From: an uncultured Nitrospirota bacterium
Lineage (GTDB): Bacteria; Nitrospirota; Nitrospiria; JACRHA01
Length of the DNA stretch: 64,000 bases
Direction of reading: 5' to 3'
Assembly (NCBI GenBank): GCA_964481895.1
Contig: CAYZUL010000005.1
Coordinates: 942-64,941, forward strand
This document shows positions 4,103 to 64,000 of the stretch, piece after piece; the first letter of the stretch is position 1, and each line of letters opens with the position of its first letter. The position numbers and the translations under genes were made by a program. Below the pieces are notes generated by a model. That model was not told where the DNA came from, made no database searches, and saw nothing but the letters and a program-made list of their open reading frames with translations.

Positions 4103-4179
4103 GGGCCGCTAGCTCAGCCTGGTAGAGCACCGCCCTTTTAAGGCGGGTGTCGATGGTTCGAATCCATCGCGGCTCACCA
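4103..4179 (+). tRNA. tRNA-Lys (anticodon TTT), CCA encoded
   Basis: Manual cloverleaf fold: acceptor GGGCCGC/GCGGCTC, D-stem GCTC/GAGC, anticodon stem CCGCC/GGCGG with loop CTTTTAA, T-stem GATGG/CCATC, T-loop TTCGAAT, discriminator A then CCA. Confidence 0.9.
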
Positions 4180-13069: not shown

Positions 13070-13076
13070 CTACCCA

Positions 13077-32127: not shown

Positions 32128-32136
32128 TTGGAGATA

Positions 32137-32200
32137 TTCGAGGCTGTTGAGCCGGAAAAAAGATAAATCGGAAAGAGAGGAGGAACTAAGGTAAGATCCG
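32137..32200 (+). repeat. 64-nt conserved leader element, copy A (upstream of uspA-A); copy B is at 54452..54515
   Basis: ttcgaggctgTtgagccggaaaaaagataaatcggaaagagaggaGgaactaAggtaaGatccg matches 54452-54515 at 60/64 positions. Both copies are intergenic and lie 5' of stress genes (uspA here, ftsH there). Confidence 0.6.
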
Positions 32201-32261: not shown

Positions 32262-32714
32262 ATGAAGGGGCAAAAGAGGAAGTTATTGAGTATCAGGAAG
32301 ATCATGGTCCCTACCGATTTTACAACATATTCAGACCATGCGATTGAATATGCAATCATGGTTGCCAGGAAATTCAAGGCAAAGATGCTGCTTGTCCATG
32401 TGATCGAACCGCTAGCTTATAGTGTAACTGATACTATGCAAGTTTTTGATCATTATACGGCATTAAAGACAGTCGCCAAACCGATCCTGGAAAACCTTCA
32501 AAAGAGGTTGTTAAAAAAAGGCCTTAAGGTAGACAGTATCCTTCTCGATGGGAATCCCTATCTTGAGATAGTCAAAAAATCCCGCGAGGCTGGGGTGGAT
32601 CTGATTATCATGGGGACCCATGGCCGTACGGGCATCGAGCATATCCTTATGGGGAGTGTGGCTGAGCGGGTCGTCCGCCTGGCATCGTGTCCTGTGGTGA
32701 CTGTGAGGGGATGA
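32262..32714 (+). CDS. uspA: Universal stress protein (UspA family), paralog A
   Basis: 150 aa; USP fold motifs (ILVPTDFT..., GTHGRTG...GSVAE); about 80% aa identity to the ORF at 56454..56906. Confidence 0.8.
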   Translation: MKGQKRKLLSIRKIMVPTDFTTYSDHAIEYAIMVARKFKAKMLLVHVIEPLAYSVTDTMQVFDHYTALKTVAKPILENLQKRLLKKGLKVDSILLDGNPYLEIVKKSREAGVDLIIMGTHGRTGIEHILMGSVAERVVRLASCPVVTVRG

Positions 32715-35164: not shown

Positions 35165-35262
35165 TGGGCTGTGGCCGGGTTGGATATCGGGTGGTATACT
35201 TGCTTTAGGATTTATAACTATCCTTACTAACCTAAAGATCTGCAAGCAAAAGTGGTGGCTCC

Positions 35263-36393
35263 ATGGACAAAATGGATCAACCTATAGAAATAGTAGGCGC
35301 CGGACCTTCAGGCCTGGTAGCCGCCATTACCCTGGCGCATCATGGGTACAGCGTGGTGGTGTATGAAGAGAGGTCAGATGTGGGACACCGCTTCCATGGG
35401 GATTTTCAGGGACTTGAGAACTGGAGCAGCGAAGAGGATATTACCAACCTCCTCTCCGGGATGGGGATCAAGATCAATTTCTTCTGTCAACCTTATGCGG
35501 AAGGCGATCTGTATGGACCTAATCTTCGAAGGGTTCCTGTCCGATCTCCCTTACCCCTTTTCTATCTCGTCCGCCGGGGTAGCGGGCAAGGGACATTGGA
35601 CTATGGCCTGAAGGCCCAGGCCGTTGAGGCAGGCGTGAAGTTCCTCTTTGGAAGCCGAAAGGAAAAGCTTCCTGACAGAGGGATTATCGCAATCGGCCCA
35701 AAGGTGGCAGATGCGATAGCAAAGGGGATGCTCTTTGAGACCAGACTGCCGGACATGGCAGCGGTCATCTGGGATGACAGCCTGGCACCAAAAGGATACG
35801 CCTATCTCCTGGTACATGAGGGGCACGCTACGCTGGCAACCGTACTATTCAGGTATTATAGAGATGAGCGTTATTATTTTAACCGGACATTGGAGACATT
35901 TCAAAGACTTTATCCCTTTCAGATGAAATCGCCAAGAGAATTTGGCGGTTTCGGGAACTTCTCGATCAGGTCAACAGGATATCATGGAGGAAAACTTTAT
36001 GTAGGAGAGGCAGCCGGGTTCCAGGACGACCTGTTCGGGTTCGGGATGCGCTATGCAATGACCTCCGGCTATTTTGCGGCCCGGTCAATCATCGAGGGTA
36101 TAGACTATGATAAGTTATGGAAGAGAGAACTCCTGTCGCTGCTTAGGGCTTCGACGGTGAATCGCCTTATCTTTGAGTTTATCGGGAATAGGGGCTATAA
36201 ATTTCTGGTTCGAAGGATATCGTATGCCAGAGACGTTAGGGCCTGGATGCAATGGTTTTACCGGCCATCGATCAGTAAGTCTATTTTGTACCCATTTGCA
36301 GCGCTGATGGGGCGGTACCGGTTGCATTTTAAGGATTATAGTTGCAGTCATGAGGATTGTGATTGCGTCTGGTGCCGCTGCCAACGGGAATAG
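35263..36393 (+). CDS. FAD-dependent oxidoreductase (geranylgeranyl-reductase-like) with Cys-rich C-terminus
   Basis: N-terminal dinucleotide-binding motif IVGAGPSGLVAAITLA; C-terminal tail CSHEDCDCVWCRC. Confidence 0.7.
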   Translation: MDKMDQPIEIVGAGPSGLVAAITLAHHGYSVVVYEERSDVGHRFHGDFQGLENWSSEEDITNLLSGMGIKINFFCQPYAEGDLYGPNLRRVPVRSPLPLFYLVRRGSGQGTLDYGLKAQAVEAGVKFLFGSRKEKLPDRGIIAIGPKVADAIAKGMLFETRLPDMAAVIWDDSLAPKGYAYLLVHEGHATLATVLFRYYRDERYYFNRTLETFQRLYPFQMKSPREFGGFGNFSIRSTGYHGGKLYVGEAAGFQDDLFGFGMRYAMTSGYFAARSIIEGIDYDKLWKRELLSLLRASTVNRLIFEFIGNRGYKFLVRRISYARDVRAWMQWFYRPSISKSILYPFAALMGRYRLHFKDYSCSHEDCDCVWCRCQRE

Positions 36394-36421
36394 AAATTTG
36401 AAGAAATATCTTGGGTCTTCT

Positions 36422-37216
36422 ATGGGTTTGCAGGGCAAAGAGATTTCATCAATGAAGGCCGCAGTAAAGGCGTGCCATTTGTGTGGGGCCTCTATTACCG
36501 GTCTCCCCTTTGTCCGCAAAGGGGAGGTCTGCTGTTGCGAAGGGTGCCTCCTTAAGGAAAAAGAATTCCGGGCGATCAAGGCTGAGAGGGACAACGCCTA
36601 TTTAGCCCTGGCAGAGGCCCTGGTGGCGGCCTTGGATACCAGGGAGCATGAGACAGGCCTCCATTCCAAACGTGTTGCCTGTCATACGCTGGTGCTTGCA
36701 AGACGGTTCATAAGTGAGCAAGACATCTTGCGTCAGGTTTACTGGGGCGCGCTGCTGCACGATATAGGCAAGATTGGTATCCCGGATACGATCCTCATGA
36801 AGGAGGGGTCTCTGACTGACAGTGAGTGGATAGAGATGAGGAGGCACCCTGAGATCGGCTACGATATTCTGAAGCCCGTCCCGTTCCTGACCGGGGCAGC
36901 GGAGATGGTAATAACTCATGAAGAGCGGTACGATGGCGCAGGCTATCCTCGCGGCCTTAAAGGGGAGGGCATCCCTTTTGGGGGCCGGCTCTTTGCTGTT
37001 ATTGATGCTCTGGATGCCATGACCTCAGATCGGCCTTACCGGAGGGGTTTGTCCTTTGATACGGCCAAAATGGAGATTCTCCGCATGTCCGGTACCCAGT
37101 TTGATCCAAAGGCAGTGGAAGCCTTCCTTGCGGAAGAGCCTACCCTCCGGGAAATGGTAGACTTAAAGTGCGGGGATGTGCAGCTTGATCCCGGAATATC
37201 TAAGAAGGGAGGATGA
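36422..37216 (+). CDS. HD-GYP domain c-di-GMP phosphodiesterase with N-terminal Cys-cluster (TRASH/YHS-like) domain
   Basis: HD ([12 protein letters not shown]) and GYP ([14 protein letters not shown]) motifs; the N-terminal cluster reads [25 protein letters not shown]. Start set to the internal ATG at 36422 because the track ORF start (36350) overlaps the upstream gene. The stop overlaps the copA start. Confidence 0.7.
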
Positions 37217-39546
37217 TTATGGCCATAGATCCTGTATGCGGCATGACAGTGGATGAGGAAAAGGCAGTGGGCAGGTCCATTCATGAAGGGACTACCTATT
37301 ACTTCTGTTCCACGCAATGTCTTGGCAAGTTTGAGGCCAATCCCTCCGGTTTTACCCTGTCAGCATCGCATTTGGCAAAGGCGAAGGAGGGAATCCATAC
37401 TATGCCGGTAACAGAGGCCAAATCCTCCAGGGGGATGGCCAAGGATCCCATTTGTGGCATGGTGGTCGATAAGGCGACCGCGCTCAAAACAGAGCAGGGC
37501 GGCCGTACCTATTATTTCTGCAGCGTAGGATGCCTGCACACCTTTGAATCCCCTGAGGCTGAGCTTAAGTCAATGCGGAGACGCGTAATGATTGCCCTTA
37601 CAGGGGTCCTTGCCCTGGCAATATTACGGGCCGCCGCCTTCCTGGCGCTGGCGGCCGGAGCCACAATCGTCACCTGGGCGCCCATTCCACAACTCCCCTG
37701 GTTCACATGGGGGATGTGGCTTTTTATCCTGGTAACACCAGTTCAGTTTATCGGTGGCTGGTCTTTCTACGTAGGAACATGGAATGCTATTCGCACCAGG
37801 ACAATTAATATGGACTTCCTGATCGCCCTTGGTACGACCGTTGCTTACATTTATAGCGTGGCCGTAATATTTTTTCCCTGGGTCTTGCCGATCAAGGTTG
37901 AGGAGCGTGATGTCTATTTCGAGGTCTCTGCCGTCATTATTGCTTTTGTACTCCTGGGTAAATACATGGAGGAGATAATCAAGAAACGCTCCTCTGCGGC
38001 CGTTAGAAAGCTCTTGGATTTAAAACCGGCCACGGCCCGGGTGATCCGGAATAATACTGAGATGGAGATTCCTGCGGAGACCCTGATGGTGGATGAGATC
38101 GTTGTTGTGCGCCCTGGGGAGAAGATTCCGACTGATGGGGTCGTCCAGGAAGGGTCCTCCTCAGTGGACGAATCGATGCTGACCGGCGAATCAATGCCAG
38201 TGGAAAAAAGGCCTGGGATAGAGGTAATCGGCGGCACGCTGAACAGGACGGGTATGTTCCGGTTTAGGGCTACCAGGGTGGGGGCAGATACGGCCCTGGC
38301 CCAGATCATTAAAATGGTAGAGGAGGCGCAGGCCAGCAGTGCGCCGATCCAGCGGCTTGCCGATCAGGTTACCGGCTATTTTGTTCCGGCCGTGGTAGGG
38401 GTGGCCTTCCTTTCCTTTGTCATCTGGTGGCTCCTGGGCAATTTTCCCCAAGGTCTCCTCTCCTTTATTGCGGTGCTCATCATATCATGCCCATGTGCCT
38501 TAGGCATTGCCACGCCGGCAGCGCTCATGGTTGGTGTCGGCAAGGGCGCCGAAGGGGGCATCCTAATCCGGGGCGGTGAGGTGTTGGAACGTGCCCAGAA
38601 GCTAACAGCAGTGGTCTTCGACAAGACCGGGACATTAACCCGCGGGGAACCTGATGTTACCGATATTATCCCGTTTTCTGAATTTCCTGAATCTGAAATT
38701 CTAAAGTCTGCTGCTGCCGTTGAGGCAGGCTCGGAGCATCCACTGGGTGAGGCGATTGTCCGAATGGCCAACCACAGGGGACTTGATCTTTCAAAAGTTA
38801 TTGAGTTCGAGGCCCTCCCTGGCCATGGTATCAAGGGGGTGATTGATGGTCATCGAATTCTCTTGGGCAACCGGCGACTGTTCAGAAAAGAAGGTATCGA
38901 ACTTACAAAAGCGGAAGAAATAATGACGCGCCTTGAATCGGAGGGGAAGACCGCCATGCTGGTGGGCCGAGAGGGTAAATTGATTGGCGTCATTGCAGTT
39001 GCTGATACCCTCAAGCCTGAAGCAAAGGAGGCCGTTGCTTCCCTCCGGGACGAAGGGGTAGAAGTCATTCTCCTTACCGGCGATAACCAGCGTACTGCCA
39101 ATGCCATAGCGAAGGAACTCGGGATCAAACTGGTCATTGCCGAAGTCCTGCCGGGCGACAAGGCGCAGGTTGTAAAGGATCTTCAGAGGCAGGGCAAGAT
39201 CGTAGCCATGGTAGGAGATGGCGTTAACGACGCCCCGGCGCTGGCGGCAGCCGATATTGGTATTGCCATAGGCTCCGGTTCAGATGTAGCCAAAGAGACA
39301 GGAGGGATAATTTTAATCAGGAATGATGTGCGTGATGTGGTGTCCGGCATACGCCTCTCCCGCGCCACCATGCGAAAGATCAGACAGAACCTCTTCTGGG
39401 CCTTTATTTATAATAGCGTGTCTATTCCGGTGGCGGCCCTCGGTTTTTTAAACCCGATCATAGCCGCAGCAGCGATGGCTTTAAGTTCGCTCTCCGTGAT
39501 TGTAAACTCGGCGTTATTGAAGCGGTTAAAGTTTTCTGCAATGTGA
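37213..39546 (+). CDS. copA: Copper-translocating P1B-type ATPase with two N-terminal YHS/TRASH domains
   Basis: 777 aa; two YHS motifs (DPVCGMTVD...YYFCSTQC and DPICGMVVD...YYFCSVGC), the CPC transmembrane metal site ([11 protein letters not shown]) and DKTGTLT / GDGVNDAP motifs. Confidence 0.9.
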
Positions 39547-39596
39547 AAATACGTGCCGATTTATACTTTATCTTTCTAAGATGGGGAGGATAGAAA

Positions 39597-41450
39597 TTGG
39601 AAATAAAAGAGCAGCAGCTCTCCCTCTGGTACTTCCTGGTTGCCTTCTTGATCCTGTTGACCATACAGAATTTTCTTTTAACGCCTCACCTTGAAAACCT
39701 CTCTTATAGTGATTTCAAGGTTCTCCTGAAGGCTGGGAAGGTGGATAATCTGACCCTTAAGCAGCGTGTTATCTCAGGTACGCTGAAAAAGGAAGGACTG
39801 GAAGATATCCTTCCTAAAGAGAAGATTGAAGAGCTTCAAAGGATTAGTAAGGGGGAGCATCGCTTTATCACGGTCAGGGTGGATGACCCATCCTTAATCC
39901 AGGAACTTGAGGCAGCTAAAGTGCGCTTTGCCGGCCAGGTGGAGAGCACCTGGTTTTCGACCATCCTCTCCTGGGTTATCCCAGCCGTTATCTTCTTTGC
40001 ATTATGGATCTTGCTAATGAAAAGGATGGGGGCAGCCAGCGGCATCATGGAGATAGGCAAAAGTAAGGCCAAGGTCTATATGGAAAAGCAGACAGGGGTG
40101 TCCTTTAATGATGTTGCTGGGGTGGATGAGGCGAGAGCTGAGTTGATGGAGGTGGTGGAATTCCTGAAGAACCCTCAGCGCTATCGACGCCTGGGCGGGA
40201 AGATCCCGAAAGGGGTCCTCCTGGTAGGTGCACCTGGGACAGGGAAGACCCTCATGGCCAAGGCAGTGGCCGGAGAAGCGGGGGTTCCCTTCTTTAGCAT
40301 AAGCGGGTCGGAATTTGTAGAGATGTTCGTAGGCGTTGGTGCGGCGCGGGTACGGGACCTTTTCGCCCAGGCCGAAGGAAAGGCCCCTTGCATCATATTT
40401 ATTGATGAGCTTGATGCCCTAGGCAAGGTGCGCGGATTTAATCCAGTTGGCGGGCATGATGAGCGGGAGCAGACATTAAACCAGCTATTGGTAGAGATGG
40501 ATGGGTTTGATACAAACAAGGGGGTCATCATAATGGCTGCAACCAACAGGCCGGAGATCCTGGACCCGGCCCTGCTCCGGCCCGGGCGATTTGACCGGCA
40601 CGTTGCCCTTGACAGGCCGGATCTAAAAGGAAGGGAAAAGATCCTCCATGTCCATAGTAAAGCCGTTAAGCTATCGCCAAAAGTCGATCTCTCTGTCATT
40701 GCCGCCAGGACCCCGGGGTTTGTAGGGGCGGATCTTGCCAACCTTGTCAATGAGGCCGCATTGTTAGCTGCCCGCAAAGGTAAGGATGCAGTAGAGATGG
40801 TTGATTTCGATGACGCGATAGACCGGATCATTGCAGGACTAGAGAAAAAGACGCGGGTGATGAATCCGAAGGAGAAGGAGACCGTTGCCTATCACGAGGC
40901 TGGTCATGCCATAATTGCCGAATCCCGTCCGCACGTAGACCGGGTTTCAAAGATCTCCATCATTCCCCGTGGTGTTGCCGCATTGGGGTATACACAGCAG
41001 CTTCCCACGGAGGACAGATATCTTCTTAAGAGGACAGAACTGCTTGATCGGCTCGATGTGCTTCTTGGAGGCAGGGTGGCCGAGGAGATTGTTTTCGGTG
41101 ATGTCTCTACCGGGGGCCAGAATGACCTCCAGCGGGCCACAGACTCGGCGCGCCATATGGTAACACAGTATGGGATGAGCGAGCGCCTTGGCTTGGCCAC
41201 ATTTGAAGAGCCGCGCACCTCTCCCTTTTTAAATATCCCTATGCCCCAGGGCCAGAGGGAATACAGTGAAAGGACAGCCCAGGCTATCGATGAAGAGATC
41301 CAAAAGCTCTTAAAGGAATCCCACGCGCGCGTCAACGAGACATTGATTTCAAAACGCTCTATGATGGATTCCCTGGCAAAACTTCTCCTTGAAAAGGAGG
41401 TGGTCGACCGGCTAACCCTGGATAAACTAATGGAAACAGATAGAGAATGA
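39597..41450 (+). CDS. ftsH: ATP-dependent zinc metalloprotease FtsH, paralog A
   Basis: 617 aa; AAA Walker [12 protein letters not shown] region, HEAGH zinc motif; TTG start with a GGGGAGGA RBS. Confidence 0.9.
40108..41326 (+). repeat. 1,219-bp block 100% identical to 55066..56284 (ftsH paralog core)
   Basis: Direct comparison of the two ftsH copies: the flanks are about 80-85% identical, the central block is perfect, and one SNP marks each boundary (40107/55065 and 41327/56285). Confidence 0.85.
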
Positions 41451-41493
41451 GACTGACGCCAGGAGTTGAATTTCTATTTCAAGAGGTTTTTGC

Positions 41494-42309
41494 ATGCGTA
41501 ACTTAGTATGGCTTTGCATTTATTTAATGCTGGGGTTTGCAATAGCTATCCAGGCGCTATGGGGCGTTTCTGTCTGGACAGCCATTATTGTAGCCCTCCT
41601 GCTGGTCTGTCCGATAATCATGATATGGGGGGCGATAAAGGTGATGCGTCATCCTGCGGAGCTGCCATTGGAATCTGTTCCAGAGACCCGCGGTATGTCC
41701 CTGAACTGGATGGCCCCTTTTTATGATTGGCTGTGCTTGCGCTTCGGGCTAGGTACACCTTTTCGGAAGGAGACCTTACGTTTTGCGGCGTTGCAGGCCG
41801 GTGAGATGATCCTTGATGTGGGGTGTGGTACGGGCGTCCTGACGCGTATGGCGTCAGAGATAGTTGGTCCGACAGGGAAGGTGATCGGGATCGATCCTGC
41901 GCCAAGGATGATCGGCATTGCGAGAAAGCATGCCGCTCTCTCTGGTAATCAAGCAGAATTCAGGCTGGCAGTCATAGAGCACCTCCCATTTGACGATGAA
42001 ACCTTTGATGCAGTTTTATCGAGCGCCATGATCCATCACCTGCCTTCTGATTTGAAACATGCAGGTTTGCTGGAGGTAAAACGTGTGTTAAAACCAGGAG
42101 GACGTCTGGTTGTGGTGGATCTCGACCGGCCTGCCAATCTTCTATGGTGGTTTCTCGTATGGCCGCTATTGATAATGCCTTCGACCCGCGACCACCTGGC
42201 TGGTCGATTGGTCTCATATTTTATAAAGGCCGGGTTCGACCCGGCAAACAAGGTGGGAGGCTGGCGGGGACTTTTGAGCTTCTGGCTGTTATGCAAACCA
42301 AAAAAATAA
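41494..42309 (+). CDS. Class I SAM-dependent methyltransferase with N-terminal TM helices
   Basis: 271 aa; motif I VLDVGCGTGVLT and a Methyltransf_11-like core; two N-terminal hydrophobic helices. Confidence 0.7.
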   Translation: MRNLVWLCIYLMLGFAIAIQALWGVSVWTAIIVALLLVCPIIMIWGAIKVMRHPAELPLESVPETRGMSLNWMAPFYDWLCLRFGLGTPFRKETLRFAALQAGEMILDVGCGTGVLTRMASEIVGPTGKVIGIDPAPRMIGIARKHAALSGNQAEFRLAVIEHLPFDDETFDAVLSSAMIHHLPSDLKHAGLLEVKRVLKPGGRLVVVDLDRPANLLWWFLVWPLLIMPSTRDHLAGRLVSYFIKAGFDPANKVGGWRGLLSFWLLCKPKK

Positions 42310-42349
42310 ACAGGTGTACCAGGGAAACAATAAACAATAGGAGGGTCAA

Positions 42350-43078
42350 ATGAATACCAGAATGATAGGCGTTTTGTTTTTGGCATTGATGCTTTTGGTC
42401 GGTCCAGTAACCTCTGCGCAGATGATGGGTGATGGGATGATGAAGGGCGGCCAGAAGGAGATGGAGAAAAAGGAAGAGGGCCGGATGCCGATGATGCATA
42501 AAATGATGGATGAGATGATGGAGATGATGAAAGAGATGATGGAGGGAATGAAGGGCATGGCCCAGGATCAGCCGACCAAACAGAAGATGGAAGAGATGAT
42601 GAAAAAAATGGATGAGATGATGAAGCAGCATGATTCCATGATGGGAGGGATGATGGGTGGTTCCGGGATGGGATCCTCTGGGATGAAACCCTCCAAGGAG
42701 GGGGCAGCAGCTTCGTCTCTTGCCACTCAGAAAAACAGTGGTGGTGGTGTTACAGTGGAGGCGACCCTGCTAAATCCGAAAACCATCGGAGAGAAGATAT
42801 CCTTACAGATTAAGCTCGATACCCATAGCGTGAACCTCGATCAGTATGATCTGTCCGGGATTTCAAGGCTTCGGGACGACGAGGGAAAAGAATTCTCAAA
42901 ACCAACACTGGAAAAGCCTGAAGGTGAAGGCCATCACAAAGGCGGGATACTTGCATTCTCCAATAAGGATAAAGATGGTAAGCCTATAGTGACGGCAAAT
43001 ACGAAATATATTGAGCTTATCGTAAAGGATGTGGCAGGTGTGGCCGAGCGGACATTCAGGTGGGAGCTTACCAGATAG
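42350..43078 (+). CDS. Met-rich periplasmic protein, putative Cu/Ag-binding (paralog A)
   Basis: 242 aa; signal peptide then dense MxxM/MMxxMM repeats (MPMMHKMMDEMMEMMKEMMEGMKGM) and a C-terminal beta-rich domain. A paralog begins at 63368. Sits in the copper island. Confidence 0.65.
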   Translation: MNTRMIGVLFLALMLLVGPVTSAQMMGDGMMKGGQKEMEKKEEGRMPMMHKMMDEMMEMMKEMMEGMKGMAQDQPTKQKMEEMMKKMDEMMKQHDSMMGGMMGGSGMGSSGMKPSKEGAAASSLATQKNSGGGVTVEATLLNPKTIGEKISLQIKLDTHSVNLDQYDLSGISRLRDDEGKEFSKPTLEKPEGEGHHKGGILAFSNKDKDGKPIVTANTKYIELIVKDVAGVAERTFRWELTR

Positions 43079-43111
43079 AATTTTAGGTCTTCGTTAACCT
43101 GGAGGATCAGC

Positions 43112-43462
43112 ATGAAAATGATTTTGGCGATCGTACGAAGTGAATGCCTGGAAAAGCTGGAGAAAACACTCCTTAAGATTGGAGAAAAAGGTTTCTCGGT
43201 AAACAAGATCCAGGGCATGGGAGAGCTACGTGAATATGGCTACATAATATTTGACCTGGTGAGTCACATCAGGATCGAGATTATTACTTCAGAGGATCGG
43301 GTAGCTGAAATAAAGGACGCTATTGTTGAGGCCGGCTGGACAGGTTACGCTGGTGATGGGCTGATCGCAGTCCTGCCTGTAGATGAGTTTACCAAGATCC
43401 GTACTGCAAAAAGGGTTGATCCTCCGCGCAAAAAGCGGATAAGTAGGAAAAAAGGGCCGTAA
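43112..43462 (+). CDS. P-II (GlnB)-like family protein
   Basis: 116 aa; ferredoxin-like beta-alpha-beta pattern resembling P-II (ILAIVRSE...FSVNKIQGMGE...). P-II-like genes commonly accompany metal-efflux loci. Confidence 0.55.
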   Translation: MKMILAIVRSECLEKLEKTLLKIGEKGFSVNKIQGMGELREYGYIIFDLVSHIRIEIITSEDRVAEIKDAIVEAGWTGYAGDGLIAVLPVDEFTKIRTAKRVDPPRKKRISRKKGP

Positions 43463-43600
43463 TGCATAGTGAAAATATTTCTAACGCTTAGATGGCTGCT
43501 GTGATGATCATTTGACTACTTGAAGGCGACAAAGAATGCTCAAAGACACTGTCTGCGCGATGTATCTGGATGAGAAGTTGATAATTGGAGGATCGAAGAG

Positions 43601-44680
43601 ATGAAGAGATATTTAAAATTATCTATTAGTTTTATATGGGTATTGTCCTTGTTTTTATGTCTTTATCCAGAAACACTCCTCGCCCTTTCGCAGGAGGAAG
43701 AGGGCAATATCAAGGTCTATGAAGGATCGAGCCCTGGTGTGGTAAACATCATTAATACGGCTGTATCTTATGATTTCTTCTTTAACCCTGTCCCTGAAGG
43801 GGGAACTGGTTCCGGTTCTATCATCGATAAGAAAGGGAATATCCTGACAAATTACCATGTGGTTGAAGGGGCTCAGAGGCTCGATGTCACCCTCTCTGAT
43901 GGGAGCAAATGGGAGGCAAAGGTCGTTGGGGCAGATCCCAGCAATGACCTGGCTGTTATCAGGATAGATGCGCCGCAGGACAAATTAAGGATAATACCCT
44001 TCGGAGATTCAGGCGGATTAAAGGTGGGGCAAAAAGTCCTTGCCATAGGCAATCCCTTTGGACTGGAGAGGACACTCACTATCGGGATAGTGAGTTCTCT
44101 CGGTAGGACAATGAGGGCTACCAATGGCAGGCTTATGAGAGAGATTATCCAGACCGATGCAGCCATAAATCCTGGAAACTCCGGCGGCCCTCTTCTAGAT
44201 AGTAACGGAAAGATGATAGGAGTTACTTCTGCTATATTTAGTCCTGTAGGGGCCAATGTGGGTGTCGGTTTTGCAGTTTCTATAAATGTTGTAAAGAAGG
44301 TTGTCCCCCAGTTGATAGAAAAAGGCCGTGTCATAAGACCCTGGCTTGGTATTACGGGCCAGGATATAGATCCTGAGCTTGCGAAGCTATTAAAGCTACC
44401 ATCAGAAGGGATCCTAATTGCAGAGGTTGTTAATGGGAGTCCTGCTGATAAGGCAGGTATCAGGGGAGGGAAAAAAGTTATATCGATAGGCAACCTCCAG
44501 ATTGCAACAGGGGGCGATATGGTGCTGGCTATCAATGGAAAGGCTGTAAAAACTATGGATGAACTGACAGAGGACTTAGAATCGAGGGCAATAGGCCAGT
44601 CTGTTGATATTGATCTTTTAAGGGATGGTAAAAAGAAGGCAGTAAAGATATTGCTTTCAGAAATGCCGCCCGGGCAATAA
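43601..44680 (+). CDS. Periplasmic serine endoprotease DegP/HtrA family (single PDZ)
   Basis: 359 aa; catalytic-triad contexts (TNYHVV, DLAVI, GNSGGPL) and a C-terminal PDZ domain. Confidence 0.85.
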   Translation: MKRYLKLSISFIWVLSLFLCLYPETLLALSQEEEGNIKVYEGSSPGVVNIINTAVSYDFFFNPVPEGGTGSGSIIDKKGNILTNYHVVEGAQRLDVTLSDGSKWEAKVVGADPSNDLAVIRIDAPQDKLRIIPFGDSGGLKVGQKVLAIGNPFGLERTLTIGIVSSLGRTMRATNGRLMREIIQTDAAINPGNSGGPLLDSNGKMIGVTSAIFSPVGANVGVGFAVSINVVKKVVPQLIEKGRVIRPWLGITGQDIDPELAKLLKLPSEGILIAEVVNGSPADKAGIRGGKKVISIGNLQIATGGDMVLAINGKAVKTMDELTEDLESRAIGQSVDIDLLRDGKKKAVKILLSEMPPGQ

Positions 44681-44734
44681 TCTACTTTCTGCTCTTATTA
44701 CCAGGCTTATATCAGTTGAGGAGGGTACGGATCT

Positions 44735-47098: not shown

Positions 47099-49595
47099 GC
47101 TGGCATGGCGGAATATCTTTCGAAATTACAGGAGGTCTTTGATCACTTCCTTTACCATTATAGTAGGGGTGTCTGCTCTGATCTTTATCTGGGGTTATGT
47201 GGACGGGATCAATGAGCAGATGATCGAAAACTCCACCCGTTACCTCTCAGGGCACCTCCAGATCCATCAAAAGGGATACCATGAAGAGAGGGCCCTCTAT
47301 CTGGCATTAGAGTATACCGATGACATTCGCACCATGCTGCTTAAAGAGCCGCATCTTGAATCAATAGCCCCCAGGCTTGAGGATAAGGCCCTTATCAGCA
47401 GGGGAGATAAATCTATGGGGATCATAGTTGTAGGCATCGATCCTGAAGAGGAGGCAAAGATCACAACCCTTTCTCTTACAGTCAAAAAGGGTAAATACCT
47501 CGCTTCAGGGGATAAGGATGCCATTCTCCTGGGGGATAAAACAGCTAAGATCCTGAATGCTTCTATCAATGATGAGGTGGTGTTGATTACCCAGGCGTCG
47601 GATGGCTCTATCGGGGCAGGTCGCTACAGGGTTAAGGGGGTCTTTGATACCGGGATAGACATGATAGATGGGGCCTATGTATTTTTGCCCATCAATACAG
47701 CACAGGAACTCTATGTGCTGCCTGGACGTGTGACAGCCCTTGCTGCCCGGCTTGATAGCCGTCAGGCCTCCTCAGAGGTATCTGCACGTCTTGGAGTCCA
47801 ATTAGGCCCCTCCTACGAGGTATTAGGTTGGAAAGAGCTGCTCCCCTCTGTTGTGGCAAGCGCCGAGTTGCATGAGGTTGTCGCATATATAATTCTGATA
47901 GTGGTCTTTCTGGTGGTAGGGGTTGGTATTACAAATACAATCCTTATGGCGGTAATGGAGCGGACCCGAGAATTCGGCGTTATGATGGCGCTTGGAACCA
48001 AAAGGGGTCAGATCATTCTCATTGTCCTCTATGAAGCCATGCTCCTGGGTCTCTTCGGCCTTCTCCTTGGCAATATAATCGGGGTCACAATCCTCCTCTA
48101 CTTTGCAAAAGAGGGGATTGATCTTGGCCAGTATGTCCGTGCCATGGAGACGATGCCTGGCCTCTCCGGCCTTGTCTACCCCCTCCTCCGGATTGATCGC
48201 CTTCTGGTGATATCCGGTCTGGTCTTTATAGTCGGTCTTGCCGCATCCTTTTATCCTGCCTGGAGGGCCTCAAGATTACGGCCTGTTGAGGCGATCCGCG
48301 GGATTGAACGGACAATGAGGATTTCGAGGCCCTACAGATCTAAAAAGGAGGCTGTATGGCATACCAGGCATGTCTTCTTAAAGATTTCTGTCAGGGCCAT
48401 TGCCAGGAATCCGCGGCGCTCCATCCTTGCGGTCTCTGCTATGACCCTCGGACTTGGCTCTTTCCTCTTTCTTTATGCCTTTGCTGACGGTTTTTTTGAG
48501 CAGATGATCGAGACATCAACGGGCTACATCACCGGCCACCTTCAGATCCAGCACAAAAGGTTTCAGGAGGAGATCTCCCCGGAGTTTTCAATCTCCGAAC
48601 CGGGCGGCCTTTTGGCCAGGATCCGCCTTGATCCCCGCGTTCTTGCCGCGGCGCTCAGGGTAGAGGCAAAGGCAATGGTGAGCAGTCCGGTCAAGTCTGA
48701 AGGCATTCACCTGTTTGGTATTGATCCTGTTGAGGAACAGAAGATCACCATCCTTCATCGTGCCATTAAGAAGGGAAGATACCTGATGCCTGGCAACGAC
48801 AGGGAGATCCTCCTCGGACGAAAGTTAGTTGAAAGATTAGGGATAGAGCTCGGCGAGAAGGTTGTTGTGCTGGTTCAAGCGTCAGATGGCACATTGGGAT
48901 CTGCTGCCTTTATAGTAGGAGGTATTTTCGAGACAGAGAATCAGCTTTTTGACGGGTCCATCGGGTTTACAACCCTTAAGGCAGGACAGGCCCTTCTTTC
49001 TTTAGGAGGGCAGGCATCTTCCATTGTGGTTAAGTTAAGAGAGAGGGAGGAGGTGGAACTGGCCGCGGCCTCCCTAAAGGGTATGCTGTCAGGATCCCCT
49101 TATGTCCTGATTACCTGGAAGGGGCTCCTCCCGGAGGTTGTTCAGATGATGGAGTTATCCAGGATGAACATCAATGTAATACTAATGATTGTGTTCGTTG
49201 TTGTGGCGCTTGGTGTGATGAACACACTCCTCATGTCGGTCATGGAGAGGACAAGGGAGTTCGGGGTTATGATGGCCCTTGGAACCAGGCCCTCCCAGAT
49301 CCTAAAGCTTGTCTTATATGAGTCGATGTTCCTGGGTCTTATAGGGATGGCTGCGGGTTATGCTATGGGTGCGGCATTTATATATTATCTGGGATCGAGC
49401 GGCATAGATCTTTCGGTCTATACAGAGCGTAACGTGACCATTCCAGGCCTGACCGGGGTCATCTATCCCCGCCTCATACCGGCCCATGTCCTGATCCCGT
49501 CGCTTATACTATTTTTGACAAGTATTGCTGCCGCCATTTATCCGGCCCTGAGGGCGGCCCGGTTGGCGCCTGTCAGCGCAATCCGGCATGTTTAG
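47085..49595 (+). CDS. ABC transporter permease with duplicated FtsX/MacB-type domains
   Basis: 836 aa; two repeats, each with an N-terminal TM, a large periplasmic domain and a 3-TM FtsX bundle; the two halves share obvious internal similarity (MERTREFGVMMALGT appears twice). Confidence 0.8.
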   Translation: MKFLKLAWRNIFRNYRRSLITSFTIIVGVSALIFIWGYVDGINEQMIENSTRYLSGHLQIHQKGYHEERALYLALEYTDDIRTMLLKEPHLESIAPRLEDKALISRGDKSMGIIVVGIDPEEEAKITTLSLTVKKGKYLASGDKDAILLGDKTAKILNASINDEVVLITQASDGSIGAGRYRVKGVFDTGIDMIDGAYVFLPINTAQELYVLPGRVTALAARLDSRQASSEVSARLGVQLGPSYEVLGWKELLPSVVASAELHEVVAYIILIVVFLVVGVGITNTILMAVMERTREFGVMMALGTKRGQIILIVLYEAMLLGLFGLLLGNIIGVTILLYFAKEGIDLGQYVRAMETMPGLSGLVYPLLRIDRLLVISGLVFIVGLAASFYPAWRASRLRPVEAIRGIERTMRISRPYRSKKEAVWHTRHVFLKISVRAIARNPRRSILAVSAMTLGLGSFLFLYAFADGFFEQMIETSTGYITGHLQIQHKRFQEEISPEFSISEPGGLLARIRLDPRVLAAALRVEAKAMVSSPVKSEGIHLFGIDPVEEQKITILHRAIKKGRYLMPGNDREILLGRKLVERLGIELGEKVVVLVQASDGTLGSAAFIVGGIFETENQLFDGSIGFTTLKAGQALLSLGGQASSIVVKLREREEVELAAASLKGMLSGSPYVLITWKGLLPEVVQMMELSRMNINVILMIVFVVVALGVMNTLLMSVMERTREFGVMMALGTRPSQILKLVLYESMFLGLIGMAAGYAMGAAFIYYLGSSGIDLSVYTERNVTIPGLTGVIYPRLIPAHVLIPSLILFLTSIAAAIYPALRAARLAPVSAIRHV

Positions 49596-50772: not shown

Positions 50773-51031
50773 ATAGAAAGCAGTCATTGCGAGCACCCTA
50801 AGGGTGTGTGGCAATCGCAAAGACAATTTCTATATCGGAATCGGGGATGAAGATTTTGCTGTTTTATTTGACATAGGCAATCAGATATGGTAGTTATACC
50901 ATCATTCTATAATTAGTCTATCCCAATGTTGTTGTGAGGAGAAGGCGAAACTGTTTCGTAAAATGCAATGTGAAATAAGGTTATACTGGTGCTGATCGGA
51001 CATTGAAGTATTCAAAGGGTCAAATAGATAG

Positions 51032-51445
51032 ATGAATAGAAGTGATTTAAAACTACTATCACTCATCAGGCTTAGAGAAGCACGGGTACTATTAAAAAAT
51101 AAAAATTATGAAGGAGCTTATTATCTTTGCGGCTATGTTATTGAATGTGGGCTGAAGGCTTGTATTGCAAAGAAAACTAAGAGATATGATTTTCCAGACA
51201 AAAAAGCTGTCAATGATAGTTACTGTCATAATCTTGCAACACTTGTTAATACAGCCGGTCTTAGCATAGAATTAGATAAAGAAAAGAAAAGCTATTCAAT
51301 ATTTGAAAGTAATTGGAGTACCGTTAAAGACTGGTCACAAGTGAGTCGTTATGAAAAACATACTGAGAAAGAAGCGCAAGATCTTTTTTATGCAATCACA
51401 GATAAAAGACATGGAGTTTTGAAATGGTTAAAGCGGCATTGGTAG
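51032..51445 (+). CDS. HEPN domain protein
   Basis: 137 aa; helical HEPN pattern (REARVLLKNKNYEGAYYLCGYVIECGLKACIAKK...SRYEKH); lies in an AT-rich islet. Confidence 0.55.
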   Translation: MNRSDLKLLSLIRLREARVLLKNKNYEGAYYLCGYVIECGLKACIAKKTKRYDFPDKKAVNDSYCHNLATLVNTAGLSIELDKEKKSYSIFESNWSTVKDWSQVSRYEKHTEKEAQDLFYAITDKRHGVLKWLKRHW

Positions 51446-51490
51446 AATAAGATATACAAGAGCCAGTTCAAGTTCAGGAGGCAGTTCAAA

Positions 51491-51880
51491 ATGTTTGTTA
51501 AAGCTGCATTGGTAAAAGAAGATTTACACGATGGCAAGAGATTAATTGAAGCGTTGGATAAAGCAAACTTTAAAGTCCAAGCCGCGCTATGGTTCTACTT
51601 GGCTGATTCTGATGAATGGCGGCTTTATATTTCTTCCCCATTTGTAGAAAAAGAAGGGCCTAGAAAATCTTATAATTTTATTCAAAAAATCTTGGCAAGG
51701 CTTGCGCCACCTTCTAGTTTCTCTTTAACAGACATTACAGTTCTAAGTCCTTCTAGCAATTTGGTTAAACTAATGAGAGTAGCGGTCCGGACTGGGCCTG
51801 GCATATCGGGCATCCGATTTACTCGAAATGTTATAAATAATACTTTGATAGAGGATGCATATATTTATCGTATTGTGTGA
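51491..51880 (+). CDS. Hypothetical protein, partner of the HEPN gene (no recognisable motif)
   Basis: 129 aa, same strand, 45 nt downstream of the HEPN gene. It lacks the GS..DxD nucleotidyltransferase motif expected of an MNT partner. Confidence 0.4.
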   Translation: MFVKAALVKEDLHDGKRLIEALDKANFKVQAALWFYLADSDEWRLYISSPFVEKEGPRKSYNFIQKILARLAPPSSFSLTDITVLSPSSNLVKLMRVAVRTGPGISGIRFTRNVINNTLIEDAYIYRIV

Positions 51881-52227
51881 ACCATTTTAATGCTACTTTT
51901 CACAACACACGTTTAATGATTGGTCTTGCGTGATCCTTTTATTTAGTGTAAAAATCTTGTCCTGTTATAGTCACCTCACATCTGTCTCTTAAGATATTCT
52001 ATGGCATCCTCTCTCGTAGTCAATATACCTAAGATCTGTTTTTCCCTTAAGTCGGCAAGGGGTAAAGGGAGGGGGTAAAGGGGACGGTTCTCGTTAATTT
52101 ACAAAAGTGACGGGAGAGGATAGATTTTAAGCATGCCTAGCATAAGTAGGGACTATAATTTATAGGGACAGCGACCATTTAAGAAGAATTTCTGCTCACA
52201 ACGGTAGATAGCAGAATCTTAACAACC

Positions 52228-52533
52228 TCATGCAATATCATCTAAATTTCGTGACCCATGAACAACTCGGTGAATTTCGATAATTTTACTGCGGACTATG
52301 TAAAATACAAGGTAGGATTCAATCACGAGGATGCGATAGCCTGAATTTTTAAGCTTGTCATCTTTCGGTACCCGGCCAAGAAACGGGTGGGATTTAAGGC
52401 TGCCAATGTGATGATTGAGTTTATCAATAAAAATTGCGGCATTGGCCGGACTGACATTTCCAATCCAGTCTAAGATCGAGACAAGATCGTCAACGGCAAC
52501 AGGAAGGTAACGAAGGGTGTATCTATTAGCCAT
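52228..52533 (-). CDS. parE: ParE/RelE-family type II toxin
   Basis: 101 aa; ParE-like pattern (...YRILVIESYLVFYIVRSKIIEIHRVVHGSRNL); 8-nt overlap with the upstream antitoxin gene. Confidence 0.7.
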   Translation of the reverse strand: MANRYTLRYLPVAVDDLVSILDWIGNVSPANAAIFIDKLNHHIGSLKSHPFLGRVPKDDKLKNSGYRILVIESYLVFYIVRSKIIEIHRVVHGSRNLDDIA

Positions 52534-52792
52534 GCAAGTGTTGCATGAGTTTTTTCATCACTTGCGAATGGGTAAGCCCTTTTTCTCCGCTGGCGGCCTG
52601 GGCCTGAGCAACAGCGAGTTTTTCGAAAAGCTCGACCCTTGCCTTTAGCCTTTCATAGTGTTCGATGCTCATTACAACAAGGTCGCCCTCGCCATTAGTT
52701 GTCAGATAAACAGGTTCATCCTGTTCATGGCACAATGAGGCAATATCTCTTGTTTTATTACGAAGACTTGAGATAGGTTTTATTATCGGCAT
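52526..52792 (-). CDS. phd: Phd/YefM-family type II antitoxin
   Basis: 88 aa; Phd/YefM N-terminal fold pattern (IIKPISSLRNKTRDIASLCHEQDEPVYLTTNGEGDLVVMSIEHYERL). Confidence 0.7.
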   Translation of the reverse strand: MPIIKPISSLRNKTRDIASLCHEQDEPVYLTTNGEGDLVVMSIEHYERLKARVELFEKLAVAQAQAASGEKGLTHSQVMKKLMQHLHG

Positions 52793-52981
52793 AGGTTCTC
52801 CTCTAAATGGATAGTATAGAGATAAATTATCACCTAATTATGATAAAATCAAGAACGAATTATGTGACACATTTTCAGGCGACCGGGTGCGTATAAAAAA
52901 TCAGGCAATTTATTTTTCCGGGTGATATACTATTTTAAGGAAAAAGGATTGAGTCGATAGGTAGCTTCTACAGTCACGACC

Positions 52982-54428: not shown

Positions 54429-54451
54429 CGGTTAATGCACGCGTAATGATG

Positions 54452-54515
54452 TTCGAGGCTGCTGAGCCGGAAAAAAGATAAATCGGAAAGAGAGGATGAA
54501 CTATGGTAAAATCCG
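54452..54515 (+). repeat. 64-nt conserved leader element, copy B (upstream of ftsH-B)
   Basis: 60/64 identical to 32137-32200. Confidence 0.6.
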
Positions 54516-54554: not shown

Positions 54555-56435
54555 ATGGAAAAGAAACAGAAGGAGTTTTCGCTCTGGTACTTCGTAATCG
54601 CCTTCCTGATCCTGATAGCCATTGAGAATTTTCTGTTGTCCTCCCACCTTGAAAACCTCTCTTATAGCGATTTTAAGGTACTATTAAAGGCAGGAAAGGT
54701 GGAGGATCTAACCATTAGAGAAAAGGTTATATCGGGAAAGCTGAAGAAGGAGGAGCTAGAGGGGCTCCTCCCTAAAGAGAAGGTAGAGGAACTTCAAAGA
54801 CTCGGTAAAGGGGAGTATCACTTTATTTCGGTCCGGGTGGATGACCCTTCGTTAATACAGGAGTTGGAGGCAGCGAAGGTGCGCTTTGCCGGTCAGGTGG
54901 AGAGCACCTGGTTCGGGAGCCTCATGTCGTGGGTTTTGCCCGCAGTAATCTTCTTTGCCCTCTGGATCTTTTTTATGAAACGGATGGGTGCGGCAAGCGG
55001 TATTATGGAAATTGGCAAGAGTAAGGCCAAGGTATATATGGAAAAGCAGACAGGGGTGTCCTTTGATGATGTTGCTGGGGTGGATGAGGCGAGAGCTGAG
55101 TTGATGGAGGTGGTGGAATTCCTGAAGAACCCTCAGCGCTATCGACGCCTGGGCGGGAAGATCCCGAAAGGGGTCCTCCTGGTAGGTGCACCTGGGACAG
55201 GGAAGACCCTCATGGCCAAGGCAGTGGCCGGAGAAGCGGGGGTTCCCTTCTTTAGCATAAGCGGGTCGGAATTTGTAGAGATGTTCGTAGGCGTTGGTGC
55301 GGCGCGGGTACGGGACCTTTTCGCCCAGGCCGAAGGAAAGGCCCCTTGCATCATATTTATTGATGAGCTTGATGCCCTAGGCAAGGTGCGCGGATTTAAT
55401 CCAGTTGGCGGGCATGATGAGCGGGAGCAGACATTAAACCAGCTATTGGTAGAGATGGATGGGTTTGATACAAACAAGGGGGTCATCATAATGGCTGCAA
55501 CCAACAGGCCGGAGATCCTGGACCCGGCCCTGCTCCGGCCCGGGCGATTTGACCGGCACGTTGCCCTTGACAGGCCGGATCTAAAAGGAAGGGAAAAGAT
55601 CCTCCATGTCCATAGTAAAGCCGTTAAGCTATCGCCAAAAGTCGATCTCTCTGTCATTGCCGCCAGGACCCCGGGGTTTGTAGGGGCGGATCTTGCCAAC
55701 CTTGTCAATGAGGCCGCATTGTTAGCTGCCCGCAAAGGTAAGGATGCAGTAGAGATGGTTGATTTCGATGACGCGATAGACCGGATCATTGCAGGACTAG
55801 AGAAAAAGACGCGGGTGATGAATCCGAAGGAGAAGGAGACCGTTGCCTATCACGAGGCTGGTCATGCCATAATTGCCGAATCCCGTCCGCACGTAGACCG
55901 GGTTTCAAAGATCTCCATCATTCCCCGTGGTGTTGCCGCATTGGGGTATACACAGCAGCTTCCCACGGAGGACAGATATCTTCTTAAGAGGACAGAACTG
56001 CTTGATCGGCTCGATGTGCTTCTTGGAGGCAGGGTGGCCGAGGAGATTGTTTTCGGTGATGTCTCTACCGGGGGCCAGAATGACCTCCAGCGGGCCACAG
56101 ACTCGGCGCGCCATATGGTAACACAGTATGGGATGAGCGAGCGCCTTGGCTTGGCCACATTTGAAGAGCCGCGCACCTCTCCCTTTTTAAATATCCCTAT
56201 GCCCCAGGGCCAGAGGGAATACAGTGAAAGGACAGCCCAGGCTATCGATGAAGAGATCCAAAAGCTCTTAAAGGAATCCCACGCCCGTGTCAAGGAGACA
56301 TTGATCTCAAAACGCTCCATACTGGAATCCCTGGCAAAGCTCCTCCTTGAAAAGGAGGTGATTGACCGTGCGACGCTTGACCATCTGCTGGAGACACAGA
56401 GGAATGCTGTCGTGATAACAAAAAAAGGAGTCTAA
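54555..56435 (+). CDS. ftsH: ATP-dependent zinc metalloprotease FtsH, paralog B
   Basis: 626 aa; same motifs as paralog A; the central 1,219 bp are identical to paralog A, while the N- and C-terminal regions are diverged. Confidence 0.9.
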
Positions 56436-56453: not shown

Positions 56454-56906
56454 ATGAAGGAACAAAAAAGAAAGTTTTTGCCGATCAAGAAGATCCTTGT
56501 GCCGACTGATTTTACAGTCTATTCAGATCATGCAATTGAATATGCAATTATGGTTGCCAGGAAATTCGAGGCAAAAATCCTGCTTATCCATGTAATCGAA
56601 CCGTTTGCTTATAGCGTAACTGATACAGTCCAAATAATTGATCATTATACGGCATTAAAGACAGTGGCACGGCCTATCCTGGACAACCTGCAAAAGAGGT
56701 TGTTAAAAAAAGGCATTAAGGTAGACTGTACCCTTCTCGATGGGAATCCCTATCTTGAGATAGTCGAGAAATCCCGTCAGGCAGGTGCGGATCTGATTAT
56801 CATGGGGACCCATGGCCGTACGGGCATCGATCATATCCTTATGGGGAGTGTGGCTGAGCGGGTTGTACGCCTGGCGCCATGCCCTGTATTAACAGTAAGG
56901 GGCTGA
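56454..56906 (+). CDS. uspA: Universal stress protein (UspA family), paralog B
   Basis: 150 aa; about 80% identical to the uspA at 32262. Confidence 0.8.
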   Translation: MKEQKRKFLPIKKILVPTDFTVYSDHAIEYAIMVARKFEAKILLIHVIEPFAYSVTDTVQIIDHYTALKTVARPILDNLQKRLLKKGIKVDCTLLDGNPYLEIVEKSRQAGADLIIMGTHGRTGIDHILMGSVAERVVRLAPCPVLTVRG

Positions 56907-63104: not shown

Positions 63105-63367
63105 TAATTTAACAGGTTAAGATTAGTTACCCTAAAGGTCTTTTTACCTGAGATCCTGGCAGCAAAATATCCCACCTGACAGACTCAAAAATATCTTCAA
63201 TATTTCAAAGGATTAGCATCTGTGAAGACCCCTTCTTTGTGGCAGGTCTATATATCTGGTGCTATACTTTCTTTGGGAACTAGTAGCGACTCCCTGATAC
63301 ATTTATTAATTATTTTAGGGAAAGTTTTGTAGATGGCCATAAATAACATAAATAATAGGAGGTTCAA

Positions 63368-64000
63368 ATGAACGTTAAAGTAATTGGAGTTTTGTTATTA
63401 GCATTGATGTTTTTAGTCAGTCCTGTAATCTATGCCCAGATGATGGGTGATGGGATGATGAAGGGTGGCCAGATGGCGGCCGAAGGGGAAGAAGAGGGTC
63501 AGATGCCCCAGATGCCGATGATGCATGGGATGATAAATCGGGTGATGGAGATGATGCAGGAGATGATGGAGGGCATGAGAGGTATGGCCCAGGATGAACC
63601 GACAAAGGAAAAGATGGATGGGATGATGATGGAGATGGACGAGATGATTAAACAGCATGAGGCGATGATGGAAGGGATGATGTCTGGTTCAATGATGGGA
63701 CGCTCTGATGAGATGAAGCCTGTCGAAAAGATGAAAGGGACTATGTCTTCTGCGACACAGAAAAATAGCGGCGGCGGGGTGACAGTAGAAGCGACCCTGC
63801 TAAATCCAAAGGATATTGATGAGAGGGTCACCTTCAGTCTTAAGTTCGATACGCACAGTGTAAACCTCGATGAATATGACCTGGCAAACATCTCACACCT
63901 TAGGGATGACCTTGGAAGGGAACTGCATGGGCCTGTCCTTGAAAAAGCTGAAGGAAGCGGACATCATCGGAGCGCGATAATATCCTTCTCAAATAAGAAT
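63368..64000 (+). CDS. Met-rich periplasmic protein, putative Cu/Ag-binding (paralog B), partial at window end
   Basis: ATG at 63368 with an AGGAGG RBS; the translation MNVKVIGVLLLALMFLVSPVIYAQMMGDGMMKGGQ...MPMMHGMINRVMEMMQEMMEGMRGMAQD...GGGVTVEATLLNPK... parallels the 42350 ORF. It is absent from the ORF track because it runs off the window. Confidence 0.7.
   Translation, partial: MNVKVIGVLLLALMFLVSPVIYAQMMGDGMMKGGQMAAEGEEEGQMPQMPMMHGMINRVMEMMQEMMEGMRGMAQDEPTKEKMDGMMMEMDEMIKQHEAMMEGMMSGSMMGRSDEMKPVEKMKGTMSSATQKNSGGGVTVEATLLNPKDIDERVTFSLKFDTHSVNLDEYDLANISHLRDDLGRELHGPVLEKAEGSGHHRSAIISFSNKN

Follow-up and report, generated by a model that had tools for sequence, protein, structure and literature searches.

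In the window (the whole stretch of 64,000 nucleotides analysed here, from an uncultured groundwater Nitrospirota bacterium) two ftsH genes, ftsH-A and ftsH-B, are found in direct orientation with a spacing of 14,958 bp, and their middle parts, 40108-41326 and 55066-56284, proved to be the same: direct string comparison gave 0 mismatches over 1,219 bp. This identity quite probably reflects a recent interlocus (ectopic) gene conversion between diverged genes lying 15 kb apart on the same chromosome. Recent intragenomic gene conversion had been proposed in the first-pass annotation of this DNA, which was made from the sequence alone. The coordinates of the two open reading frames (ORFs), their 15 kb spacing and the position and 100% identity of the block were all reproduced, and the proposed process agrees with the lack of synonymous differences in the block and with the discordance observed against the orthologues.

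The two ftsH genes and their common tract

The features of the gene pair are the following (aa, amino acid; nt, nucleotide; TM, transmembrane segment).

39597-41450, + strand: ftsH-A, 617 aa (ORF call, Pfam, NCBIfam TIGR01241)
54555-56435, + strand: ftsH-B, 626 aa, ATG start (ORF call, Pfam, TIGR01241)
39597-40107, + strand: A-specific 5' flank (TM1, periplasmic domain, TM2, linker), 78.3% nt and 79% aa identity with B
40108-41326, + strand: putative conversion tract, ftsH-A copy, codons 171-576, identical to the B copy
41327-41450, + strand: A-specific 3' flank (C-terminal tail), 75.8% nt identity with B
55066-56284, + strand: putative conversion tract, ftsH-B copy, identical to the A copy and 96.2% identical to the orthologue of a related genome, L161

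Both genes are predicted to code for intact FtsH proteins, members of the AAA+/M41 membrane metalloprotease family. The start codon of ftsH-A is TTG, with a GGAGG ribosome-binding site upstream. The products scored 817 bits (ftsH-A) and 820 bits (ftsH-B) with the FtsH equivalog model TIGR01241, the curated cutoff of which is 600 bits, and both contained the Pfam domains FtsH_ext - AAA - AAA_lid_3 - Peptidase_M41 in this order and in full length. In both cases the top PDB matches were FtsH chains (7tdo, 2ce7 and 7vhp, E down to 1e-182). The catalytic motifs could be read in the translations, namely Walker A (GxxGxGKT), Walker B (DExD), the pore-loop FVG, the second region of homology with its Arg fingers and HEXXH (HEAGH); all of them lie within the common tract, hence they are the same in FtsH-A and FtsH-B. 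The ratio of nonsynonymous to synonymous divergence (dN/dS, Nei-Gojobori) between the flanks of the two genes was 0.1-0.2 (about 0.1 in the 5' flank), which indicates that both are under purifying selection.

The tract corresponds to the middle 66% of the gene, and the second-longest identical run in the pair was 30 bp. Outside the tract the identity of A and B was 78.3% over 511 nt on the 5' side and 75.8% over the 124 alignable nt on the 3' side, where the last approx. 40 nt could not be aligned; the 80-85% given for these parts earlier was an overestimate. The homology of the two loci begins 19 nt before the start codons and fades about 40 nt before the stop of ftsH-A. Sharp single-nucleotide boundaries had been described for both ends. 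This holds for the 3' edge (mismatches at 41327, 41330, 41336 and 41348), while the 5' edge is slightly softer, with mismatches at 40107, 40076 and 40061 and denser ones beyond. Exact alignment, recommended in the first-pass annotation as a check, brought up no scattered differences in the tract, and the whole window is free of N.

At the protein level, residues 171-576 comprise the entire AAA+ module, the lid and about 157 of the approx. 190 M41 residues including HEAGH. The AAA core was rightly named as homogenised, but the "start" of the protease domain was too small a description of the rest. The TM/periplasmic N-termini and the C-termini are distinct, as had been claimed: residues 1-170 show 79% aa identity (36/170 residues differ) and the C-terminal tails 75%, the tail of B being 9 aa longer. 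The membrane-cytoplasmic linker has the same protein sequence in the two proteins. FtsH-A and FtsH-B thus now carry the same ATPase/protease engine, and what distinguishes them is the TM/periplasmic N-terminus together with the tail at the C-terminus.

No synonymous difference was found between A and B over the approx. 296 synonymous sites of the tract, while the proportion of synonymous differences (pS) reached 0.60 in the 5' flank and 0.45 in the 3' flank (Nei-Gojobori in both cases); in the flanks of the pair, synonymous changes are close to saturation. The longest run of identity in 10,000 simulations had a mean of 26 and a maximum of 60 bp at 78% identity, and a mean of 44 and a maximum of 104 bp at 87% identity, where the log10 P of 1,219 identical bases was about -72. 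Since the simulated runs never exceeded 60 or 104 bp, chance could be ruled out as the source of the tract, and purifying selection cannot explain it because the synonymous sites are identical too. Self-BLAST showed that other paralog pairs of the window are 74-86% identical and have no long identical runs. A mobile element or insertion sequence was also considered as the source of the 1,219 bp and was ruled out: the block codes in frame for FtsH and has homologous counterparts in all relatives.

Orthologues, probable direction and age of the proposed exchange

The comparison included the related "Nitrospirae bacterium" metagenome-assembled genome (MAG) GCA_016234185.1 (L161), which is approx. 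91-96% identical in the neighbouring DNA, two loci on one contig of the more distant relative GCA_040960765.1 (L162 and L164), and a 2.4-kb groundwater contig from Hainich H14 (L081, ERZ1292645), the upstream junction of which is the same as that of the ftsH-B locus. Positional orthologues of ftsH-B are present in L161, L081 and L162, between a carboxyltransferase gene and a universal stress protein (Usp) gene; the one in L161 codes for 626 aa.

In the 5' flank, the tract and the 3' flank, ftsH-B was 97.5, 96.2 and 97.4% identical to the L161 orthologue, respectively, and ftsH-A 79.5, 96.2 and 76.6%. The flanks therefore pair B with the orthologue, whereas the tract pairs A with B (100%). Since the A-B identity in the tract is higher than that of B and L161 and the order is reversed in the flanks, this discordance is the signature of interlocus gene conversion. 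It is what was expected from the comparison with orthologous loci that the first-pass annotation had suggested, and it is shown for the B side, no ftsH-A orthologue being present in the collections searched. Orthologues with 96-97% identity in the flanks already show 37 synonymous differences in this part of the gene, and the synonymous divergence of ftsH-B and the L161 gene is 0.139 in the tract versus 0.062-0.076 in the flanks. The identity of ftsH-B and L162 in the tract was 87.3%.

Lineage-specific differences were counted with L161 and L081, using L162 as outgroup. Those specific to L161 are spread evenly along the gene (about 1.0-2.0%). The window-specific differences amounted to 1.2% in the flanks of ftsH-B and to 0.9% in the tract outside a short patch, which took 14 of the 24 differences of the tract within 158 columns (8.9%; permutation p<5e-5).

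40789-40946, + strand (55747-55904 in B): patch in the tract, columns 1193-1350, different from all three B-type orthologues

At columns 1193, 1295 and 1299 the states of the patch agree with 5-6 of the 6 non-B lineages. At these columns, as well as at 1272 and 1212, the window has the states of non-B ftsH genes and the B group shares derived bases, and the residues of the patch match those of other members of the FtsH clade.

Since the tract outside the patch diverges like the flanks of B, the tract can be regarded as B-lineage sequence, which favours B as the donor and A as the recipient. Most likely, B overwrote the middle of A in a large event. The patch would then be imported, most simply a remnant of ancestral A-type sequence; its non-B states mean at least two exchanges with flow in both ways, so there was probably more than one event. 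A short exchange from A (or from another source) to B may have preceded the large B-to-A event, or, in an alternative order, several sub-tracts may have been exchanged in both directions. The exchange would have been a non-reciprocal homologous recombination between the ftsH copies in direct orientation. RecA-type strand invasion may have been seeded in the better-conserved AAA+/protease core, with the tract ending where the divergence climbs toward the approx. 22% of the flanks. The 0 differences over approx. 296 synonymous sites place the last event at a synonymous divergence (dS) below about 0.01. The dS of the ftsH-B flanks versus L161 is approx. 0.065; from these values we infer for the last event an age below about one sixth of the divergence that separates the window from the L161 lineage.

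The opposite direction, A to B, had been read from L081 alone; this reading was overturned by L161, which shows that the core of L081 and not that of the window is the discordant one. GC content and GC content at third codon positions (GC3) do not distinguish A-type from B-type sequence.

In its flanks the ftsH-B orthologue of L081 (460-2340) shares 96-97% identity with both B and L161. Of its differences about 100 are private, and they cluster in columns 1392-1676 (approx. 20% divergent, protease domain); columns 543-618 also stand out as a divergent block. No closer source for the divergent block was found among the 169 loci compared. These data point to an independent exchange or mosaic event in that lineage, and together with the patch of the window the approx. 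20%-divergent block may be taken as a hint of repeated events. L081 also has about 200 bp of additional sequence between a 68-nt element, described below, and the ftsH start. In the L162 orthologue, the 5' third of ftsH (10001-10510 versus window 54555-55064) is 78% identical to the window with a dS of 0.88, versus 85-91% identity in the neighbouring genes and the ftsH 3' end; the N-terminal TM/periplasmic part seems to evolve fast or to be often replaced.

The ftsH-A locus and the competing explanations

The ftsH-A gene lies between an ATPase and a methyltransferase gene.

37213-39546, + strand: YHS-domain heavy-metal P-type ATPase, directly upstream of ftsH-A (Pfam; 94% aa orthologue in L164)
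39540-41484, + strand: single-gene indel carrying ftsH-A, 1,945 bp, relative to L164
41494-42309, + strand: S-adenosylmethionine-dependent methyltransferase, directly downstream of ftsH-A (Pfam; L164 synteny)

In L164, 7952-12321 corresponds to 35172-39539 of the window and 12330-14321 to 41485-43437, so that only 10 bp separate the stop of the ATPase gene from the start of the methyltransferase gene, with no ftsH-A between them. The gene thus appears as a lineage-specific single-gene insertion relative to the related genome. L164 lacks ftsH-A, and L161 and L081 show only ftsH-B at this site; a Logan contig with the ATPase (L165) breaks off within the ATPase gene. No orthologue was found in genome and metagenome scans with the A N-terminus or in a search of 5.8 billion proteins, where the best N-terminal match was a B-type orthologue with 81% aa identity; the protein cluster of ftsH-A has one member, and the gene has been seen on this single contig. 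GC and GC3 of the ftsH-A flanks equal those of ftsH-B. The flank data fit an old duplicate as well as a transfer from an unsampled relative.

Several points weigh against the conversion of A by B. No unconverted A core is available for comparison, so the direction is inferred, not shown, and a core of A homogenised with B before the L161 split would equally allow the last event to run from A to B. The doubled B-L161 synonymous divergence in the tract calls for the extra patch hypothesis. The ftsH-A gene is known from one contig only, and short-read polishing or bubble merging of near-identical copies could have inflated the exact 100% slightly; the true identity might be 99% or more if a few differences were erased, which leaves the interpretation unchanged. 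That the last event had ftsH-A as its donor, the ftsH-A core having been homogenised with B-type sequence before the L161 split, is unlikely, although not extremely so: the non-B patch shows some flow into B, the doubled divergence is in line with it, and L081 shows that B-type genes receive foreign blocks. It requires, on the other hand, an extra earlier homogenisation, and the 0.9% of differences in the tract outside the patch against 1.2% in the flanks is as an untouched B would show. It is very improbable that ftsH-A was born chimeric, a foreign ftsH having recombined with a copy of B on its insertion between the ATPase and the methyltransferase genes. The precise single-gene indel, the orphan flanks of ftsH-A and the movement of this FtsH clade between phyla (Cupriavidus and Ralstonia megaplasmids carry relatives of 70-72% aa identity, next to the same ATPase cluster) would suit such a birth, but the GC and GC3 shared by the A flanks and B suggest a long residence, and the patch needs flow into B as well. 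Even so the mechanism would still be homologous exchange with B, and the timing alone would differ.

An assembly or polishing artefact, in which both genes exist but have different cores in the organism, one core having been substituted for the other or two similar paths merged by the assembler or a short-read polisher, is quite unlikely. In its favour, the DNA comes from a 65.8-kb MAG contig, ftsH-A is not found in any second assembly, and an exact repeat of 1.2 kb is a known assembly hazard. A collapsed de Bruijn node cannot be passed twice without spanning information. Both copies are in one gap-free contig with syntenic 3' neighbours, and the repeat was probably resolved by spanning data. 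Since the 5' and 3' flanks run into the neighbours expected from independent assemblies, the two contexts are independently corroborated and do not represent a trivial assembly duplication of one gene. The merging of paths requires that they are about 95% or more identical, which itself implies conversion given the 22% divergence of the flanks, and L081 independently carries a mosaic ftsH, so that this gene does undergo exchange within the lineage. The probability that no conversion took place is practically negligible. In that case the middle of FtsH would have been conserved enough to stay identical, or a very recent duplicate would have had fast-diverging ends. AAA+ and M41 are indeed the most conserved parts, with a core protein identity of 82-94% in the clade, but synonymous differences are absent from the approx. 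296 sites while orthologues with 96-97% flank identity differ at 37 in the same part, B and L162 have only 87% core identity at a similar flank divergence, and a flank pS of 0.6 cannot build up quickly. Interlocus conversion thus explains the tract best.

A second single-gene indel versus L164 was found at 43438-44731, where a DegP/HtrA gene (ORF 43601-44680) for a Do-family serine protease lies between a P-II-like gene and DUF2933; L164 has only approx. 100 bp there. Thus two quality-control proteases, FtsH and HtrA, would have been gained or lost in the same metal-stress cluster. A further gene at 42330-43078, next to a P-II-like gene, codes for a 242-aa protein for which no Pfam or NCBIfam match was obtained; it forms a paralog pair with 63348-64000 (74.5% nt identity) without a conversion signal.

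The FtsH clade, related systems and neighbouring features

The ftsH genes of the Cupriavidus and Ralstonia megaplasmids stand beside a heavy-metal P-type ATPase, YHS, DUF2933 and DUF5676. The closest N-termini have a patchy distribution among Pseudomonadota, Methylomirabilota, Rokubacteria and Nitrospirota, and similar clusters are present in other Nitrospirota MAGs. The FtsH clade of the window therefore appears to be accessory and mobile, belonging to a horizontally mobile stress cluster of distant taxa. The recurring cluster consists of the YHS heavy-metal P-type ATPase, small YHS and DUF2933/DUF5676 proteins, PEMT/ICMT methyltransferases, MetK, an HD_5 protein and FtsH, as exemplified by Cupriavidus pinatubonensis plasmid p2 (NZ_CP080769.1, 572426-592267). 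Between the Nitrospirota MAGs and the betaproteobacterial megaplasmids the identity is 70-72% for FtsH and 77-80% for the ATPase, which suggests a mobile metal-stress module with a dedicated FtsH. In one further metal cluster no ftsH was present within the stretch retrieved, and a literature search on the ATPase-YHS-DUF2933-FtsH cluster found nothing specific.

An earlier survey listed ftsH of Deinococcales among 26 prokaryotic genes with recurrent concerted evolution (PMC6053082). Like tufA/tufB and the other paralogs of that set, the two genes of the window have separate contexts, homogenised synonymous sites and a closer relation to each other than to the orthologues, and homo-oligomer formation is common to concerted paralogs and FtsH. 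Unlike in those cases, only the middle 66% is homogenised here and the ends are about 22% diverged; both copies are known together from one genome only, and the gene belongs to a Nitrospirota lineage and an accessory FtsH clade tied to a metal-stress cluster. Non-reciprocal transfer of internal segments between dispersed copies, with mosaic patterns, is shared with Neisseria pilE/pilS or the amoA/haoA copies. Here, however, silent cassettes are absent and nothing points to programmed variation; the two ftsH genes are intact, and purifying selection acts on both.

In Pseudomonas aeruginosa clone C, FtsH1 is the core copy and FtsH2 an island-borne xenologue (PMC6629908, PMC10850787). Hybrids of the two demonstrated that the choice between FtsH1 and FtsH2 function is set by the part from the N-terminus to the membrane-cytoplasmic linker inclusive, and that one AAA+/protease module can stand in for the other (PMC10850787). 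In both organisms two FtsH genes occur per genome, at least one of them in a horizontally mobile stress cluster, and the determinant region of Pseudomonas is the part left distinct in the window, except for the linker. The linker of the window is glycine-poor like the FtsH2 type (PMC10850787), which is a resemblance only. The Pseudomonas pair is, however, highly diverged and has no reported conversion, while here both copies belong to one clade. The gene pair of the window may be considered a natural counterpart of the Pseudomonas laboratory hybrids, with the same AAA+/protease module and a different N-terminal region, and as such it supports the view that paralog specialisation resides in the membrane-proximal part.

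We can propose only tentatively that recurrent conversion, running in both directions and restricted to certain domains, maintains a uniform catalytic engine in the accessory FtsH clade, the membrane/periplasmic module being free to diverge. If this were true, one ATPase/protease core, possibly in mixed hexamers, would serve under two membrane sensors in two operon contexts, and L081-like sister lineages would undergo the same domain-restricted conversion independently. The process itself is known and no new mechanism is involved. The example is new, and a domain-shaped, partial tract and hints of recurrence are all that is unusual about it. It offers a clean case of partial-gene conversion that can be dated, from an uncultured Nitrospirota lineage, with a probable donor, signs of at least two events and a tract in keeping with the domain architecture. 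In practical terms the 1.2-kb exact direct repeat can collapse assemblies, affecting annotation and binning, and in the cell it can mediate the loss of the intervening 15 kb.

The ftsH-B gene is accompanied by a short repeated element and a second Usp gene.

54448-54515, + strand: 68-nt non-coding element E2, upstream of ftsH-B (second copy, E1, at 32133-32200)
56454-56906, + strand: Usp2, universal stress protein gene, 18 nt after ftsH-B

E1 and E2 are direct repeats with 93% identity, and one copy only is present in L161 and L081. No Rfam match was obtained for the region of the element, its fold was not significant (z = -1.4), and the sigma-70 and terminator scans near both ftsH starts were at background level. 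Usp1 (32262-32714) and Usp2 are 85.7% identical, the differences being evenly spread and without a conversion signal. The 22.2-kb segment between E1 and E2 (32201-54447) contains Usp1, the ATPase, ftsH-A, DegP, a LolA/ABC/FtsX set and a beta-CASP gene. In L161 and L081 it is absent from this site, where the carboxyltransferase gene is followed by the single element and then by the ftsH-B orthologue; in L162/L164 the genes of the segment sit downstream of ftsH-Usp instead. This pattern would fit either integration or deletion through recombination in the 68-nt element.

Near the right end of the segment, a low-GC stretch (50800-52800, GC 0.405) contains a gene for a HEPN-domain protein (51032-51445), unannotated ORFs and a Phd-family antitoxin gene (52526-52792, minus strand) adjoining a 101-aa ORF; it looks like a toxin-antitoxin islet. 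A weak repeat (70%) between 47896-48052 and 49186-49339, inside an 836-aa MacB/FtsX-type permease gene, probably reflects the two FtsX halves. The only Rfam match in the window was a single tRNA gene at 4103-4176.

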